From Saccostrea cucullata (taxonomy: Eukaryota), in assembly GCF_032062105.1 (NCBI RefSeq), contig NW_026931824.1:310001-374000 (forward strand): a DNA stretch of 64,000 nt. Direction: 5' to 3'. Below the pieces are notes generated by a model, which was not told the origin of the DNA, searched no databases, and saw only the letters and a program-made list of their open reading frames with translations. This document shows, in pieces, positions 13,165-24,000 of the stretch; within the stretch, counting starts at the first letter, position 1; every line of letters begins with the position of its first letter. Made by a program: the position numbers and the translations under genes.

Positions 13165-14592
13165 ATGAACGAAAAAGAAAAAAGAATAGTTCAACGTCTT
13201 CATTACAAATTAATTACGAACATACGGACAGAGGAAATTGCGCCACTGTTATACTCAAAAGAAGTTATAAGTGGCAATTTCTTAAGTGATATCCTCCATA
13301 AAAGTACCCCCAACGCCGAGAAAATGTCAGCTCTTTTGTTTGAGGTGTGTGATCGTTGTTCAATGCCGGACTTTGTTGAATGCTTGGACGAAGCAGGATA
13401 TGATTTTTGGGGGACAGAAATAAGGCTGTTGATAGAAAAACCTGATAGCTCTCTTCAGATTCGAAATTATGCCAGACAGTCTACCTCTCAAAATTCCTCT
13501 TTTGTGGATAGTTTTGCAGAAAAAGTAAAGTTTAAGATTCTTAATGCAGAGGCACGAAACTTCAAGTGTGATTTTAAACGCTGGGCCAAGCGGTTACTGT
13601 ATAGTCTGCGTCATGGCCGACTCTCTTTATCCGAGTCTCGTCTGCAAGCCGATTGTTGCTTTATACTGCTCGACTCTCTGGCTGTCATTGAGAGAACTCA
13701 CTCCTCAGACAAGGATAATCTCTGGAAATCACCGGTGTTTCCCGAAATGGAATATCTGATATCTAAAACTTCTAACCCTATTTCAAGTAGAATACGACAT
13801 CATGCTCGATACGGCGTCGCTCTTTTTCTTGGAGGTAAAGATGACGAAGGAGAAGAATATATTGAGGCAGCTCTGAAGGACGCCAAAACATTTCTACAAT
13901 CAGGTCGTGACATCGGAAACTGCATATTTGCACTGGTCAATTTTAAATTAAATCAATTCAGGAAAAGGAATGCCATGGATGGTAAACAAAACATTCTTAA
14001 TCTTATAGAAGATGGAATTGGGTATTTTCAGAACGAAGATGATGACACTAGAAATAATTGGCGAGGGGTGTATCTTGACAAGAAAATATCTTGCCATTTG
14101 GCTCTTGACCCTACAGGACGAGCTATTACTAATGTCCCGATTTCGAACGAAGATCTAAAGGTTGCCAAGGAATGTCTCTGTGAAATGGCCAATCTGAGTA
14201 GGAAAGACAAACGAAGAAAAATTCATTTTTATCGAGAACAAGCATGTTTGTGCGAAAGAGAATCAGAATTTTGGATTGCGAAAGGCTATCTATATCAGGC
14301 TTTGGAATTATGTAAGGAGGGAGGATATGAATCCGAATTGCACATTTTAGAACAAGAATTAGGAGAGCAAAGCTCTAATTTGACAATCAATGACAATGTT
14401 ACACCATGCATGACAGTAGATTTGACGTGGGACGATGGCTCCCAAAGTCCGGAGGAGGATCAGAATGGGGGTTGTTTATCAGAGACTGCTGCTTCACATG
14501 GCATATCAAACGCATGTATGTCAGAAATATCTCATAAATTAAAAATCGAAAACAATTCTTCAACAGAGAGTGATCTAGTAATGGATGGGTAA
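13165..14592 (+). CDS. Intronless protein with N-terminal CARD/death-fold-like domain, TPR-like alpha-helical core and acidic tail (paralog A, 475 aa)
   Basis: Uninterrupted 1.4-kb ORF in AT-rich DNA. Residues ~1-90 follow a CARD-like pattern (KLITNIRTEEIAPLLYSKEVIS...KMSALL...FVECLDEAGYDFWGTEI). The core has TPR-like helices (YGVALFLGGKDDEGEEYIEAALK; AKGYLYQALELCKEGGY). Clear homology to 15904-17400. The ORF call is firm; the domain call is pattern-based. Confidence 0.8.
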   Translation: MNEKEKRIVQRLHYKLITNIRTEEIAPLLYSKEVISGNFLSDILHKSTPNAEKMSALLFEVCDRCSMPDFVECLDEAGYDFWGTEIRLLIEKPDSSLQIRNYARQSTSQNSSFVDSFAEKVKFKILNAEARNFKCDFKRWAKRLLYSLRHGRLSLSESRLQADCCFILLDSLAVIERTHSSDKDNLWKSPVFPEMEYLISKTSNPISSRIRHHARYGVALFLGGKDDEGEEYIEAALKDAKTFLQSGRDIGNCIFALVNFKLNQFRKRNAMDGKQNILNLIEDGIGYFQNEDDDTRNNWRGVYLDKKISCHLALDPTGRAITNVPISNEDLKVAKECLCEMANLSRKDKRRKIHFYREQACLCERESEFWIAKGYLYQALELCKEGGYESELHILEQELGEQSSNLTINDNVTPCMTVDLTWDDGSQSPEEDQNGGCLSETAASHGISNACMSEISHKLKIENNSSTESDLVMDG

Positions 14593-15903
14593 ATAAACAT
14601 ATACTTATATTTGAGTTTATGTTAACTATAGTTCTAACTCATGGGGTATATATGTTGCTCTTTTAAATCAAATAACAGACATATGTCAAAATTTAAATAT
14701 CGAAAACAATACGCTTACATCTTTAAAAGATAGTGATGTTTTATTTGTTAAATGTTTTTAAAAATATTAATTTAATAATTTTTGGTATTATTTAATTAGT
14801 TATTAATCACAAATTAAAATTGGTATCGATAATAATGATTTTTTTTATATTTGTATAACTAAAACAGTTCTTCCAAAAGACACCAAAGTCAATGACCTTG
14901 TGACCTTGACTGTGACCTACAAGCTAAAAATAGCTTTATCGATTTTTTTCAATAACTTTAACCTATCTGTTTTATAAATAAAAAATTCCCATATTAAAAA
15001 ACATGTATTATGGGAAATTTTTATATACATAAAAAGATATGTTAAAAACTTCAAGCGCCTGTGCATCATTTTAAATTTTTAAAGATTAAGTATATAAATG
15101 TATACATTGTTAACGTTTACATTGTTTTTATTAATGTTTAATAATTACATGGTATAAGGGTGTTCTCTTTAACGCATAGTTTTATTATTCTCTTTGTTTA
15201 TATCTTATTTGCATAAATTGTTGAAAAAAAATTATTTTTATGTTAATATTCAAAAGTTGTTTGGTAAGTCTACATGTGTACCTTAAAAGCTTTAGAAGAG
15301 AGTGGCTGGCTGACTGTATGAATACATTTGAAAAAAATGAAAGAGATATAAAAGATTCTCAGATTTGATGCCTTTACCTAATACTAGTATTTCAAAGATA
15401 TCACCATAAGTTTCTTCAACACAAATGGTTCATCGCTATACATATGTAGCTATACAACAATTGAATGAAGAAAAACCGCAAGGCATAGCAGAGTAAGAAC
15501 TCAATATTTAACAGGAAAAAGAACTAGCGAATCCGGCCGACGCGTTGTTATCATAAAAAGGATTCTTACAGTAGTCTACTTATATTTCATTTATAAAAAA
15601 GAGCACGCCTTTATATCACTAACATGCAGTTGCGGAAAATAAACATCACACAAGGAGTTGGTATTTCCTGCGTTCAAGGCCAAATGCAGCTAAATACATG
15701 TATATCTTTCTATTGAACACTTGTATACTTTATGCAAGACAGTGCAAGTTAGTATGCAGACGACTTTCTGAATGGAAATATTTTTGAAAGGGATTATTAA
15801 AAAACATTCCGAACGGTATAAATACCAATGAGCTGTATTGTACTTTATTCGAAAAGTAAACATTATGTGGGACCGTTTTCTGTTATAATTTCGGATGTGA
15901 AAA

Positions 15904-17400
15904 ATGAATGACATAGAAAAAGGAATATTGCGTGGCTTTTATCCTATGTTTATAGCTACTATACGTGCGGAGTTAATTGCGCCATTGTTATACGCCAAGA
16001 AAATAATTAACTGGAAGCTGCTAAACAGAAGTTCCAGTAAGGATTTAACAAATGTCGCAAGAATCACGAGTCTGCTACGCAAGGTGAGACGACGATCTTC
16101 TATGGAGGACTTTTTGGAATGTCTGAACAAAGCAGGGTATGACTTTTGTTGTGAAGAAATAAAACAAAGTCTTCAAGTAAAACAAAATGAAAATAACCAG
16201 CTTTGTACTTTTACCAGACAGCCAGGCACTCAGAGTCTGTCTTTTGTTGATAGTTTTGCAGAGAAAGTAAAGGTAAAAATTCACAATTCTGAGGCACGAA
16301 ATTTCAAGTGTGATTTCTTAAGCTGGACAGAACGGCTTTTGAATCAGCAGGATCTAAGTCAGTGTTCTCTCTCCGAGACGCGTCAAAGAGCCGATTGCTG
16401 TTTTATACTGTTAGACTCTGTTGCAGTTATTGAGAGAACTCATTCAGCGGACATCGAAAATCTCTGGAAATCACCGGTATTTTCCCAAATGGAGAATCTG
16501 ATATCTAAAACCTCTAACCCTATATCAAGTAGAATACGACATCATGCTCGATACGGTGTCGCCCTTTTCCTGGGGGGTAAAGACGAAGAGGGAGAGGAAT
16601 ATATAGAGGCAGCTCTGAAGGACGCCAAAACATTCCTGCATTCAGGTCGTGATATCGGAAACTGCATGTTTGCACTGGTTAATTACAAACTTAAAAGATT
16701 CGCTAAAACAAAATCCGTTAAGGATAAAGAAGACATTTTGAAACTCACAGAAGAGGGGCTTGGTTATTTTCAGAATGAAGACGAGGGCATACGAAACACA
16801 TGGCGAAGAGTTTACCTTGACAAGAAAATATCATGTCATTTAGCCCTTGAACCTTCAGGACGAGTAATAGAGAATGTTGACATTTCAAGTGAGGACATGA
16901 AGGCAGCAAAAGAATGCCTCTGTGAAATGGATAAAGCAGTAGAAGTGATGGACAAAAGAAGGAAAGTCCATTTTTATCGAGCAAAAGCTCATCTTCACAA
17001 CCTGGAATCAAATTTTCGAATTGCAAAAGGTTATTTAGAAGAGGCTTTGGAATTATGCGTAGAGGGAGGGTACGAATCTGAGCTTTGTGCTATAAAAGAG
17101 GAACTAGGTGAACAAGCAACTCCGGTTACCCAGAGTGACACTGCCATGGATTTAGATTTGACGGAATATGCAGAGGGACATGCTGTAAAAGACGTCAATT
17201 TAATGAGTGAAATTCCTAGTTCTCTTCCTAAGACTAGTTCATCTATATCAACTCTCGTTAATAAATGTATCTCAGATTTATCAGGGAAACTAAACTTCAG
17301 TAATACTTTGATGCCCTCCTCAGTCAAGAGAAAGTTGGACACTGATGAACTTTATGCCAGATATAAGAAAGTAATTCACAGGAGCTCGTGCGATACGTGA
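15904..17400 (+). CDS. Intronless CARD/death-fold-like plus TPR-like protein (paralog B, 498 aa)
   Basis: Uninterrupted 1.5-kb ORF, collinear with paralog A, with long near-identical blocks (e.g. LISKTSNPISSRIRHHARYGVALFLGGKD). Ser-rich tail ending in a basic motif (KRKLD...RYKK). Confidence 0.8.
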   Translation: MNDIEKGILRGFYPMFIATIRAELIAPLLYAKKIINWKLLNRSSSKDLTNVARITSLLRKVRRRSSMEDFLECLNKAGYDFCCEEIKQSLQVKQNENNQLCTFTRQPGTQSLSFVDSFAEKVKVKIHNSEARNFKCDFLSWTERLLNQQDLSQCSLSETRQRADCCFILLDSVAVIERTHSADIENLWKSPVFSQMENLISKTSNPISSRIRHHARYGVALFLGGKDEEGEEYIEAALKDAKTFLHSGRDIGNCMFALVNYKLKRFAKTKSVKDKEDILKLTEEGLGYFQNEDEGIRNTWRRVYLDKKISCHLALEPSGRVIENVDISSEDMKAAKECLCEMDKAVEVMDKRRKVHFYRAKAHLHNLESNFRIAKGYLEEALELCVEGGYESELCAIKEELGEQATPVTQSDTAMDLDLTEYAEGHAVKDVNLMSEIPSSLPKTSSSISTLVNKCISDLSGKLNFSNTLMPSSVKRKLDTDELYARYKKVIHRSSCDT

Positions 17401-18090: not shown

Positions 18091-21000
18091 ATGGCATTGC
18101 AGAGAAAAATCATTATACCGACATTGACAGGTTAAGTAATTGAAGAAATTATGACTTTTATCCAAAAGTAAGATTTCATACTGATACGAAGGTCAATAAT
18201 TCTTGCTTTTACATTGTCATTATTCAGTAGACACATTAGGTATGATATAACTTTGTCTATTTATTAATGATTCATGAATAACTATTTCGAAGACTTTATG
18301 ATCCTTCACATGTTCATGTATATTGTGTCTCAGTTGATGAAAAGTATCTTTCTAAATTTAATGATTTAACCATATATGAGATAATACATGTAACTTAACT
18401 TACTTTGAAGAATTCTGGATCTTGTATATTTTGTATAGGTTAAGATATGATACATATATTCGTATATTTCTTAATTCAATATTTTGACCTAATGATAATA
18501 AAAAAGTAATTTTGCTCTTTGTATTACTATTATTATTCACCTGGCTTGGTATAGTTTTCTAAAGTTTATATTACACTTTTGGCACCAAGGTAACATATTC
18601 TGAAATTTATTTTCACCTGTAAACCTTAACTGAGTGTAATATTACTAATATTTTCCAAGTTTATTTCATTTTCCAGTTCTTAGGAGAAAAAATGCTAAGA
18701 ATTATCTACATTTCTAAACTTGTGACATGATATTAAGACTATTCAAAAGAAAAAAATTGTTTGTATCATCTGTCCTTAAATTCATTTCTTAGTTCTGTCG
18801 TGCTTGATTGGATTTTTCGTTTCACCGACTGATGGCGCCCTACCTCCCAGCTGCACGCCTCTCGAAGAACACCCTTTGGACACAGCTGACCCAGGGATCA
18901 TATTTGGAAGAACCGCGGAGGTAGGGAACAAAGCGTCTCCGGTTAGGACCGGTAATATGCGTCAACATGGACCGCTTCCAACTCACCATTTTGCAACCAA
19001 TGAAATAAAGAATAACAAACCAATTCCAATGAGGCTGTTCCCTTATGAAGGCAGGTGAATTATTCTGAAAAATTGGGTGTAGCTACATATCAAATACGAG
19101 CTAAATTTCACAAATGAAATTTTTTTTCTCGAGTGATGAAGATGGGAAGGAACTTTTACCAATCTTTCAGCAATAATGAATTCCGCTGGTATTGTGTACG
19201 ACGCATATACAATGGACAGGTGGACAAATCCGGATCGAACGGATTTGATGATGCAGCAATCAGCATGGAAGTCTGGTGAGCCTTGGAACAAATTGACAGA
19301 CATGGGAACCAACATGCGACAAGTGGTAAGCGGTCCAGACGGGAATCCCGGAGGTGAATTCTCAGGTAAATATGACTAAAACACAGTATTGGTCGCATAT
19401 GCTGTTTCTACTAGATATTATCATCAAGTTTTCATCCATGTTCAGGTGAGTCCGGTGTCAGAGTAGGAATTTCCGGAAGTTCCGATCCGGTTTTGACAAG
19501 TTTTGGAGATCTGTACGCCAACTTTGAATATCATGGCAACGGAGGGAAAATGGAGGTATCGTATACCGTACTATTTTCTTTCGAATACAAGTAACATACG
19601 ATGTACATTGCAAAGACAATACATATTAAGGTGAAGATGTTCCACGCTTCAGGTGCCCTTGGTGCGTGGATCGGCCTTGCTGACCCATCTTTTCACTAAC
19701 GCCAATCCCGTTATTAAGCCTTTCTGTTTGTCCAACTTTGCAGGACACCATGTAAATTTCAACTGCCCTTTAGAAAGAACAGGTATGTAATGTCTGTATA
19801 TTTTTGCGACATACCTCTGTATAGAGACATAATTTATCTGATTATGTCCTAATTTTCATGAAGTATTGGATGCTGGAAGTGGGCATGCTAGCGCCACCTG
19901 CTCTGGTGGAACATTGCACCTAAGACTTCAAAACACCAAAAGAATCACAGATGTGACTAAGATACAGTTTGCTGCCAGACCGAAGGCTCGCTGGACTGCC
20001 GGGGATCACCCTATGACTAACTGTGATGCCAGAAAGTGTAGACTTTCTAGTGATGGAAAGATCCTGCAAATAGACGTGCCCAATGCTCATGGTTAGATTT
20101 CTTTTGACTATCATCTATGTCTTCCAACGTTTACAATCTATTGGAATTCCCATGGGTTCCATTTGCGCTCCGTTTTTAGCAGACCTATTTTTGTATTCAT
20201 ATGAAGCAGAATTTATGCAAAATCTTATGCGTGAAAAGAAGAAAACACTTGCCGTGGCCTTCAAATCGACTTTCAGCTATATCGATGACGTATTGTCAAT
20301 TAACAATGGTGATTTCCATTCCTACGTCGATACGATACACCCAAGAGAGCTTGAGATTAAAGACACGACAGAGTCTGACACATCTGTTTCATACTTGGAT
20401 ATTTTACTTTAAAAAGACGTTAATGGTAACTTAACAACCAAGCTGTATGATAAACGTGACGACTTTAACTTTTCTATCGTCAACTTCCCTTACTTATGCA
20501 GCAACATTCCTTCATCACCTGCATACAGAGTGTATACATCTCAGTTGATTCGATACGCAAGAGCATGCTCTACGTATAAACAATTTCTAAAACGAGGTAA
20601 ATTATTGACAAGCAAGTTGACGAAACAAGAATATCAACAGCCTCGTTTAAAGTCATCATTTCGTAAGTTCTATGGTCGATACAATGACCTTGTCAGCAAA
20701 TACAATTTATCATTGAGTCAAATGCTGACTGACGTTTTTCATACCAATTGTTAGTCCATTATTGATACACTGAATTGACGACGGATTTTCCCGTTATTTC
20801 CTGACAATGGTGACAAGGAGCACACGACGGGTGTGACCGGTAAGCAGGGGATGCTCACTCCTCCATGACACCTGATCCCACCTCTGATGTTTCGGAGGTC
20901 CGTGTTTGCTCTGCTCTTATTTTGTATTGTTTTATGGACTTTGAGATTGAATACTGTTCGTTGTCTCCATATCCTTCCTTATGCAAAACCATTAACAATG

Positions 21001-24000
21001 GTCCTTAGATTATTTAGGGATTTTGAAGTTAAGGTGCTCCATTGATCAATGTTGAAATGCGTTCATTCTTTGAAAATCTTGGGTATTTTCCGAAGAGAAA
21101 TTATGTACATAACTCTAATGAGCAAGAGTGCTTCTTCCGAACTTGTGAAATCCATGGAACACTTCATCGTGTCTTCTGGAGATGAGGGGGCTCTTTGTTG
21201 CTCAAGAGAAAATGTGTTATTTTTTAATAAAGATCTTCATATAGCTCTGCTCCCAGAATTTTTTAGCAGACAAAATAAATACATAACTATAATGCATGGC
21301 TTCCAAAATTGTGAAATTTTAGATCTTGTGGGTGAGAATTTTACTATTAGGACACGGAATTTTATGGGCATATTCTTGATTATATTAATTTTATCAAATT
21401 TGATCCAAACCCTCAAAACTAAATTTCTTGCCGTTTGCCTGTGTATGCCAAACTTGGTTGGCATTGGATTATAAATCATTGTATGAGTTCAAGCGGGTTC
21501 TGAGAGTGTATCGTATTCTTTATGCTGCTAGAATCTGCATGCTTGATAGAAACATTGCAAAATTTATATTTGCTATGTCAATATTTTGAGCAGGTGTTAT
21601 GGCGTTTGCTTTTAACTACGTTGGTCACTACGTCACTCCTTGGGATTGGATAAATCACCCGGAAGAAGTCACGTGTCATAGTCGACGCAGCGAAAAAAGA
21701 GCTGGGGGTCATATATCGTTACATGCATCGTGTGACTCCAACAGGAATCTGCAGCTTGATGTTGACCTTGGTCACTATAACATCCCAGGTGTTGACAAGG
21801 TTGTTTAAGCATGTACATTTTGATTACATTACTTGTATCCATTGACATGGCAGTAATTCAATGTAATGTTTTTCAGTTTAATATGTCAAAACAAAAATAA
21901 GGCTCAATATAAATATCAAATCTCCATTCATATTCGATTTTAAACTTTGAAAATGGCGATATTGCATGACCTTTAATAAGTAAAATGCTATCACTTATTT
22001 ATACCTTAATGGTCACTAACAGATTCAGTATGCTGTTGAGCCGGAGAATGCCTGGGGGAACCCCCCACCTATGCGCACCTGTAACCCCACCCTCTGTACC
22101 CACACCGGAAACACCGTCACTGTCAAACTGCGAGCACCTGCTCAGAACATTAAGTAAGGAGAAAGCAAAATATAGGCAAAAGTTTACATTCTAATCTTCT
22201 TATGCGACCGGAAACTCTCATTTAGCTGTAAGAAGTATATCTTCATGCTTTATCTATCGAAAAAAGGAAGTCACATGCAAACAGCATAATATGAAAATGT
22301 GTTATACTTTCTAAAGAGAAAACTTTTACATGTACTGTTTTTTTGTTTGCGACTTGAAATAATTGCTATGTGGGAGACTTCTAAGTTGAGGAAGTGTCTG
22401 TTTCTTACTTGAATATTGTACAATAAAAACAGTTTTTAATCATTTGATGATGATCTATTATCGAAATTCTAATGTAAGGAAAAAATTTCAATTTGAAACT
22501 GTGATTAAAAATTTAAAGTAATTAGTCTTCAATTGCTAGCAATGTTCCAATTTGCTTATAGACTTGCAGTCAACGTCATAGGTTACGTAACCCTTCCACA
22601 CTCTTACTGGATAGAACGCCCATATAGAATGGTCTGTGGGGGACCTGACTTAGGATCAACGGCTTCAGGTAATAAAGCTATGAAAACCGGAAACATATAC
22701 ATGTGTAAACAAGAGGTTGAGTTAATAAATGTGAAGACAGCAATGTAATGTAAGGGTTCTGTCTGAAAGAAATATGACTTTATTAAGAGTAGTACTCAAA
22801 CCATGTATGCAACTTGGTGTTTACCTTACATCACAATAGGAATTTTTTTATATCCTGCATTCAGGTGGAAGTCACGTGACTCCAGCCCCGACCCTACACT
22901 CCATCACCACACCCCCTCAACATCAGACACACTCACCTCACACGATTCGGACGACTGCCTCTTCCCGACCTCTAACCCAGGGGTCGAAGTTTATCATGGA
23001 ACTGAATGAACCAGGTGATGAATTACCAAACCAAACAAGAAAATTCTTACTGTATTTCCAAAGTCCAGTCACCCCGCACATCAACGAGGTCGACAATACA
23101 ATAATTTTTACTCCTTCAAACGGTGGTCATTACTCAGGATTCATGCAGCTAGCTTATTTAGGAGCGGGTCCAAGGGGAGATCACTCAAATGATACAGTTC
23201 TAGACAGGTATCTTGGGGTGTATTCCTATAAGCCTAAGGCGTCTTACTGCGTCAAGAATGACCGAGCATATGCCAGTTTTGATTGGAATCCCAACAACCA
23301 GTTTTCCTATCAGTCAGCAGGAACGCTTCTCATGATCACGATGCCACACCATGTATGTTAAAGCATTTTACGTACATATACATGTACGCTAGTATTTCAA
23401 AGGAAGTTTTGATAATGAAGAGACCATATTGACAAAGAAAACCTTCACTTCAAAATAAGTGACATTTAAATTATGATATGAAGGAGAATGTCTAAAAAAT
23501 ATTATCTTAATTTTTCATTGCAGGCATACATCTTAAAAGATCATTTTGCAGCAAATTTGCGGTCTACAGTCTATACGTTCAAGGGTTTTGAGGGAGCGAG
23601 CTGGTTATTAGACATGGAGGCACCACGTGCCGCTATGGAACCCGATCCTGCTGCTGTACAGGCTATAAAGGCCAACAACCAACATCTTCAGGTAGTTCTA
23701 GCCCTGGATTCCACAAACTAAGGTCAATGAAATAGTACCAATTATCTACCTTTTCGCCAATGCTACTAAGGTATTTGAAGGTCGTATTTTCTACCATCTA
23801 CTAGTAACATAAACATCCTTCATTGTTTTTAGAGATGGATTCATGCCTTTTTAGTCTATCTCATTTATCCTTTGTATGAAATTCTGCAAGCTATTGAGAC
23901 GATGGGTGCATCCTTTGTATACAATCCCTTTGATCCTTTACAGAACACACTGCAGGCTATAGAGATGGATTCATACTTTTGTAATCAATATCTTTGATTC

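Follow-up and report, generated by a model that had tools for sequence, protein, structure and literature searches.

A 64,000-nucleotide stretch of the genome of the oyster Saccostrea cucullata (contig NW_026931824.1, positions 310,001 to 374,000 of the forward strand; hereafter the window) contains, at 18091..27463, a gene for an endo-beta-1,3-glucanase of glycoside hydrolase family 81 (GH81) whose N-terminal domain is interrupted by two tandem modules of about 100 residues and a Thr/Pro/Ser/His-rich linker. Modules of this kind recur at the same site in animal-type GH81 proteins, are predicted to fold as immunoglobulin (Ig)/fibronectin type III (FN3)-like beta-sandwiches, and in molluscs are separated by a conserved dibasic motif that probably marks a cleavage site. 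We consider the chances about evenly balanced that the module copies act as non-catalytic glucan-binding modules on a digestive GH81. All coordinates below are those of the window, on the forward (+) strand.

Results

After splicing, module 1 spans 19875..21676 (residues 260-359; coding segments 19875-20091 and 21594-21676) and module 2 spans 21707..22637 (residues 370-469; coding segments 21707-21799, 22023-22153 and 22562-22637). Between them lies a spacer of 10 residues (21677..21706) with two dibasic sites, RR and KR, a putative proprotein-convertase cleavage site. The variable linker behind module 2 (22638..22983; coding segments 22638-22668 and 22865-22983) is 47-50 residues long (35-78 residues across molluscs) and consists to about 50% of Thr, Ser and Pro; we infer that it is O-glycosylated. 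GH81 sequence resumes at 22984. The original prediction, made from the window alone, had described two tandem four-Cys modules of this size and a linker rich in Thr, Pro, His and Ser ahead of the returning GH81 sequence; its coordinates and shared motifs prove right once the exons are joined, and each module of the window protein has four Cys. By alignment, the similarity of the two modules exceeds chance and identifies them as homologues: they share 30 identities over 95 aligned residues with a score of 85, the shuffled maximum being 55, and in each of nine orthologues examined the score of the module pair lay above all 1000 of 1000 shuffles (20-30 identities over 69-95 aligned residues). Introns fall within both modules, at different positions and in different phases, and do not mark the module borders; exon shuffling is therefore not supported as the origin of the duplication.

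From a structural perspective, the arrangement amounts to an insertion. In a profile of 37 sequences, residues 128-189 of RmLam81A (PDB 4k35) align before the insert and residues 190-702 after it. Because the flanks thus align to contiguous residues of a solved GH81, 189 and 190 being adjacent, the modules and linker together are, on this alignment, a true insert. Consistently, the spacing between two conserved anchors is 58-121 residues in 10 non-animal GH81 proteins and scales with module number in animals, to 214 residues with one module (two Lingula proteins), 326-397 with two and 462-492 with three (three proteins), ranges that omit the partial or low-quality models P0006, P0009, P0016, P0017, P0036, P0083, P0088 and P0090. 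The proposal that the modules sit inside the GH81 N-terminal region is borne out by both observations, which likewise indicate that the segment is not part of the standard GH81 N-terminal fold of non-animal homologues.

How widespread is the module? We scanned 49 GH81 proteins with the module profile, 48 from a catalytic-domain search plus P0011. One to three copies occupy the insert site in 35 of 36 animal-type proteins, the sole miss being the partial model P0083, and none occurs in the 13 non-animal proteins, five from plants and two from oomycetes among them. Carriers comprise bivalves, gastropods, the brachiopod Lingula, the annelid Owenia, the amphioxus Branchiostoma, the hemichordate Glandiceps and echinoderms. 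Against 1.84 billion representative proteins, the module profile gave 55 matches at E<=0.001, and we examined the context of 34 of these, plus P0013. Flanking GH81 sequence was present in eight of the 34; another 24 are short and resemble read-throughs of single exons, their context being presumed. The remaining two are repeat proteins, P0054 (phage tail repeats) and P0058 (bacterial Ig repeats), whose E-values sum five partial repeats and which we discarded as noise. A word-based search among longer proteins returned eight matches, pieces of mollusc GH81 only. Among the proteins examined, the module was not shown outside a GH81 context, and a single scan of prokaryotic genomes with the exon-6 peptide, a method that detects close relatives only, found no relative.

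A tree of 65 complete copies, with copies of 86 residues or fewer left out, places the 31 first-position copies from all phyla on one side of a branch with support of 81/89, present in 82% of bootstrap trees over 103 columns and below the starred threshold; this topology suggests that the module duplication is older than the protostome-deuterostome split. Residues Q31, C50, C55 and C101 occur in all 65 copies and A79, N81 and W92 in 64, followed by P96 (63), P89 (61), C9 (61), M47 (58), W40 (56, with an aromatic residue in 64 of 65) and A33 (55). Across 18 molluscs, mean identity is 53% for module 1, 42% for module 2 and 51% for the adjacent core (core range 51-68%), as against 24% for the linker and 31% for the inter-module spacer. 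To judge by these values, the modules are constrained like the adjacent core.

Some family members carry further domains. Mactra P0078 has an N-terminal CBM39 in addition to the modules, as separate units, and the sea urchin group of P0018, P0085 and P0089 has a Kunitz domain after an N-terminal hydrophobic segment. Lingula P0020 begins with a six-Cys segment that by eye is chitin-binding-like and has no Pfam match at E<=0.01; in Lingula P0080, metallo-beta-lactamase/beta-CASP domains are joined to GH81, probably through a gene-model fusion of neighbours.

The AlphaFold2 model of the module, built on a 38-sequence alignment, has eight strands and no long helix, with a predicted local distance difference test score (pLDDT) of 95.2 and a predicted template modelling score (pTM) of 0.86. 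The beta domain that had been postulated is thus recovered in the model, which is an Ig/FN3-like beta-sandwich; Foldseek returned Ig-type matches only, and many FN3 chains superimpose at Z 8-9 with an FN3-like sandwich topology. In a comparison with 48,161 chains by VIA-align, the matches following the best one were cytokine-receptor, GH76-associated and FN3 domains and three entries of the carbohydrate-binding module (CBM) family CBM56. The latter (5h9y, 6a6c and 5t7a) align at Z 8.6-8.8 with root-mean-square deviations (rmsd) of 2.2-2.6 A over 81-82 residues and rank 6, 10 and 13 overall, or between 1 and 4 within the top 1000 of Foldseek. The fold, as modelled, is not new and by itself gives no function.

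That the module could not be recognised at first sight agrees with our domain searches, which covered Pfam, NCBIfam, PHROGs and the PDB, so that a recent CBM family lacking a Pfam model or structure would escape them. Pfam, CBM and FN3 models included, had no match for any of nine module copies; nothing significant emerged from NCBIfam (best E 0.0031, in three of 38 members, unrelated) or PHROGs (best 0.035), and the ESM Atlas gave no usable match. Module profiles found nothing in one PDB search, and the sole match of the other was 9rku_Ai at E=0.26; at E<=10, profiles A2 and A3 retrieved none of the CBM56 chains of the PDB. The 9rku_Ai chain, a structural protein of phage 7-7-1 (PMC12796354), matches weakly over module positions 33-80 with its W, C, C, G and A-N positions kept, and we treated it as chance. 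Alignment by hhalign to one CBM39 sequence (PF15886) gave a probability of 0.2% and E 0.39, and CBM39 chains were not among the 50 structural matches listed. By sequence membership, as covered by these searches, the modules are outside CBM56, CBM39, CBM52 and FN3.

Missing from the original prediction was a conserved dibasic motif between the modules. KR or RR follows module 1 within 15 residues in 20 of 21 molluscs, four of four other lophotrochozoans, the one amphioxus protein and two of three remaining proteins, where the background rate in such stretches is 2-3%; these counts come from related species and are not independent. The mollusc miss is Dreissena P0077, a model from which the spacer and the initial strand of module 2 are missing. 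After module 2, no dibasic motif was found in any group examined. Typically, the spacer reads G-K-R or G-R-R and then has a second KR, with R-x-x-R in several proteins, and the single-module Lingula proteins have an RRRR site directly between module and core. Such KR, RR and R-x-x-R forms are a recognised proprotein-convertase pattern. The motif persists although the spacer is poorly conserved and variable in length, and the protein, like convertase substrates, combines a predicted secretory signal with a conserved KR/RR in a variable inter-domain spacer. We think it likely that a convertase cleaves between the modules in molluscs, which suggests that the mature enzyme has two chains. Outside its module, the predicted N-chain contains an odd number of conserved Cys, three, which leaves room for an inter-chain disulfide, although this is speculative.

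Splicing of the host gene at canonical GT-AG introns yields a single open frame of 17 coding exons and 1073 residues including start and stop; the 14 internal exons alone encode 974 residues without a stop. The product is identical to P0001 (S. cucullata LOC134233642) at 963 of 964 aligned residues. It matches PF17652 with 178.3 bits and PF03639 with 44.5 bits, the curated gathering cut-off being 25.6, and both families are matched in nine of nine orthologues. Coding exon 1 (18091..18130), with the start codon and the first part of a signal peptide that exon 2 (18793-19054) completes, is a prediction, as is the signal peptide itself; the NCBI X1 model begins further downstream. The exon 1-2 join is an in-frame GT-AG, the most hydrophobic 15-mer of the whole protein starts at residue 7, and the signal peptide of orthologues ends at the same place; it was called from hydrophobicity and orthologues. 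The GH81 N-terminal part ahead of the insert (18793..19874; exons 2-5 and the start of exon 6) corresponds to RmLam81A residues 11-70, weakly, and 128-189. The resumed N-terminal domain (22984..23691; the PF03639 part in exons 10-11) leads into the catalytic barrel (PF17652; 24347..27463), whose DHH (24748-24765) and ExxxE (25146-25166) motifs align to D475, E553 and E557 of RmLam81A (positions counted from the alignment), which we take to be its catalytic residues. The gene product is in all likelihood a secreted GH81 endo-beta-1,3-glucanase with intact catalytic motifs, and the host enzyme probably digests algal and fungal beta-glucan. No characterised animal GH81 turned up in the literature searched, which lay outside subscription journals and CAZy.

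Intron 6 (20092..21593), which divides module 1, contains a broken reverse-transcriptase retroelement fragment at about 20115-20754 (+), whose match to RVT_1 (E=0.0034) stays below the cut-off. The intron terminates in a tandem NAGNAG acceptor (21588-21593) ahead of exon 7; NCBI isoform X1 takes the upstream AG, P0001 having one extra Ala at this junction, and orthologue length fits the downstream AG. In intron 11 (23807-24373), decayed tandem copies of about 64-70 nucleotides span the acceptor site and the first codons of exon 12; six copies are 66-81% alike and represent an internal duplication of the splice acceptor region. Intron 15 holds an exact 300-nucleotide direct repeat (25807-26106 and 26142-26441), either a recent duplication or an assembly artefact. 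Upstream of the gene lie two tandem, apparently intronless paralogous open reading frames (13147-14592 and 15901-17400, +) of 481 and 499 residues, 58% identical and without a Pfam match at E<=1; the N-terminal 95 or so residues of both look like a death-fold (CARD-like) domain, which helical repeats appear to follow.

Discussion

How might the modules serve the enzyme? We envision that a bilaterian ancestor acquired an Ig-like beta-sandwich of about 100 residues within a surface loop of the GH81 N-terminal domain and that its descendants have retained it in one to three copies, each presumably stabilised by two disulfides, C9-C101 and C50-C55. Each copy would work as CBM56 does on bacterial GH81, keeping the enzyme attached to algal, yeast and fungal beta-1,3-glucan in insoluble or helical form. 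The candidate binding site comprises Gln and Asn, invariant residues of adjacent strands, as well as two Trp and one Met, all of which would have to be surface-exposed. Q31 and A33 on the third main strand and A79 and N81 on the sixth occupy alternating positions that are out of phase with those of the hydrophobic core, and with this topology the two pairs would be expected next to each other on a single face. A kexin/furin-type convertase in the secretory pathway probably cuts the RR/KR spacer and would thereby turn a doubly tethered loop into two free arms: the N-chain would end in module 1, and the C-chain would begin with module 2 on a Thr/Pro stalk. The two chains would associate through the GH81 N-terminal domain, because both halves build it.

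Several lines of evidence favour such a glucan-binding role. The modules are contiguous, discretely folded, non-catalytic units within a carbohydrate-active enzyme, as CBMs generally are. Animal GH81 has acquired a known CBM elsewhere too, namely the CBM39 at the N-terminus of Mactra P0078. The enzyme is probably one of the digestive gland, and molluscan GH81 expression is highest in the hepatopancreas (PMC7560691, Table 1). CBM56 binds beta-1,3-glucan, and its removal cuts GH81 activity on curdlan 2.4-3 fold (PMC7915573, PMC9609564). Thus, the suggestion of a new CBM made in the original prediction gains from the CBM56-like fold, the copy number, the context and the conserved Q/N/W/W residues, and suffers from the tie of this fold with unrelated FN3/Ig domains.

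A number of observations weigh against the proposal. The best VIA-align match is the Ig-like domain of the chitinase ChiW (Z 9.8), and no Foldseek match reaches E<=0.001. CBM56 is tied within one Z unit with FN3, cytokine-receptor and antibody domains, 40 chains having Z>=8, and antibodies also come within one Z unit of CBM56 in the Foldseek top 1000. Structural identity to CBM56 is 12%, and profile and Pfam searches found no sequence link to CBM56 or CBM39. The supposition that the modules are aromatic-rich is contradicted by composition: Phe, Trp and Tyr make up 8.2% of residues over the 65 copies, compared with 13.2% in the catalytic barrel. It is also conceivable that the Q/A/A/N/W/W/M positions are conserved as an additional small structural core. 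As for processing, the dibasic motif after module 1 is present in none of five ambulacrarian (echinoderm or hemichordate) proteins, so cleavage would not be needed by the whole family; two supplements of a scallop hepatopancreas proteome (PMC5159873) have no 'glucanase' or 'GH81' entry, and the literature searched yielded no peptide or gel evidence of GH81 cleavage.

Alternatively, the modules may bind no sugar and act as Ig/FN3-like spacers or as protein-interaction domains, with crystalline-style or mucus proteins, a gut-cell receptor or further copies of the enzyme as possible anchoring partners, which we regard as possible but less likely. The top structural matches include the inter-domain Ig module of ChiW and many protein-binding FN3/Ig domains, and the low aromatic content of the modules points the same way. 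Protein interactions do occur in the GH81 family, because in echinoids the protein carries, in addition, a Kunitz domain and a hydrophobic segment at its N-terminus. However, a spacer would hardly require that a polar Gln and a polar Asn, placed at alternating strand positions, stay invariant in all copies from several phyla, and tandem copies of variable number on Thr/Pro linkers are typical of CBMs.

The conserved dibasic motif, often with two sites able to excise the spacer, might also indicate a regulatory pro-segment, whereby the uncut insert restrains or occludes the enzyme or aids its folding and a convertase cut activates it; the RRRR directly between module and core in single-module Lingula proteins would fit. 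We consider this unlikely: the cut would free neither module, since each is covalently joined to half of the core, and all five ambulacrarian proteins retain the modules while missing the motif.

There is also a slim chance that the modules are immune beta-glucan sensors resembling the CBM39 of insect betaGRP/GNBP3, with cleavage or clustering relaying the signal. The intact catalytic residues, an expression reported mainly in hepatopancreas, the negligible profile similarity to CBM39 noted above and a mostly single-copy gene, unlike the expanded immune families of oysters, all speak against it. On the other side, the plant GH81 GmGbp is an elicitor-binding protein. It is listed in PMC9609564, and CBM39 has its fold and binding surface in common with CBM56 (PMC7915573).

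Finally, an artefact, in which the modules would be intron or transposon sequence retained by faulty splicing, or else a diverged part of the ordinary GH81 fold, is effectively refuted despite the retroelement fragment inside module 1 and the computational gene model, because the modules are in frame in independent NCBI models from more than 25 species, P0081 has both within 1044 residues encoded on a 3298-nucleotide contig and hence essentially intron-free, and the flanks are contiguous in a solved GH81.

Returning to glucan binding, its most far-reaching form, which we put forward tentatively and as possible at best, is that the modules constitute a new CBM family, confined to animals and directed at helical beta-1,3-glucan, which arrived independently at the solution found in CBM56 and CBM39. 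The module would have been inserted before the protostome-deuterostome split and, in lophotrochozoans and amphioxus, have given rise to a convertase-cut, perhaps disulfide-linked two-chain enzyme with two free glucan-gripping arms, an arrangement made post-translationally and not by terminal gene fusion.

Comparison with known systems

Marine carbon is stored to a large extent in beta-1,3-glucans, on which filter feeders and grazers feed. The present findings define an animal GH81 clade by an unnamed, well-folded (in the model) and strongly conserved accessory domain and a putative processing motif. If glucan binding is true, the module would represent a new CBM family, small and disulfide-stabilised and hence potentially useful as a glucan probe, and would exemplify the insertion of a CBM into the interior of a catalytic module. 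The literature searched holds no description of the module or of animal GH81 processing, and an unnamed Cys-containing Ig module inside the GH81 N-terminal domain, with variable copy number and a conserved processing motif, appears to be undescribed. The molluscan endo-1,3-beta-glucanases cited in PMC7551256 belong to GH16.

With respect to the enzyme, RmLam81A (4k35/5xbz) and the plant and oomycete GH81 proteins share with the oyster protein a collinear core (E=1.8e-73 and 3.4e-73 by profile) and the same Asp/Glu/Glu motifs, but they are without the insert and have one of 20 animal-conserved Cys in common. With respect to the fold, the closest likenesses are the ChiW Ig-like domain (5gzt 464-558; Z 9.8, rmsd 2.0, 86 residues aligned) and a GH76-associated domain (6u4z 51-147; Z 9.0, rmsd 2.5, 88 residues aligned); these Ig-like/FN3 accessory domains have 8-10% identity to the module, and the generic fold that they share with it indicates no function.

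With respect to domain architecture, GH81 proteins with appended CBMs are already known from bacteria and fission yeast. CBM52 repeats are short and C-terminal, whereas the modules are about 100 residues long, internal and without a Pfam match. Three CBM52 copies are found in Schizosaccharomyces pombe Eng1, like the oyster protein a eukaryotic GH81 with tandem accessory modules (PMC9609564). CBM39, the N-terminal domain of betaGRP/GNBP3 (PF15886), is an immunoglobulin fold of about 100 residues in invertebrates, as the modules are, and binds helical beta-1,3-glucan (PMC7915573); the modules differ from it in having no profile similarity to it and no Pfam match, and both are present separately in P0078. 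CBM56, represented by BhCBM56 of the Bacillus halodurans GH81 BH0236 (5t7a), PbCBM56 of a Paenibacillus GH64 (5h9y/6a6c) and PsLam81A, resembles the modules as an Ig-like beta-sandwich of 85-100 residues that is accessory to beta-1,3-glucanases, GH81 included (PMC7915573, PMC9609564). Unlike CBM56, with which they have 12% identity and no hidden Markov model match, the modules carry four Cys and a W..M..C....C loop and lie inside the N-terminal domain instead of at a terminus, in tandem copies with a dibasic site, and their glucan binding is a prediction. The animal GH81 described here thus adds to the known theme of GH81 with CBMs and is not a new kind of system.

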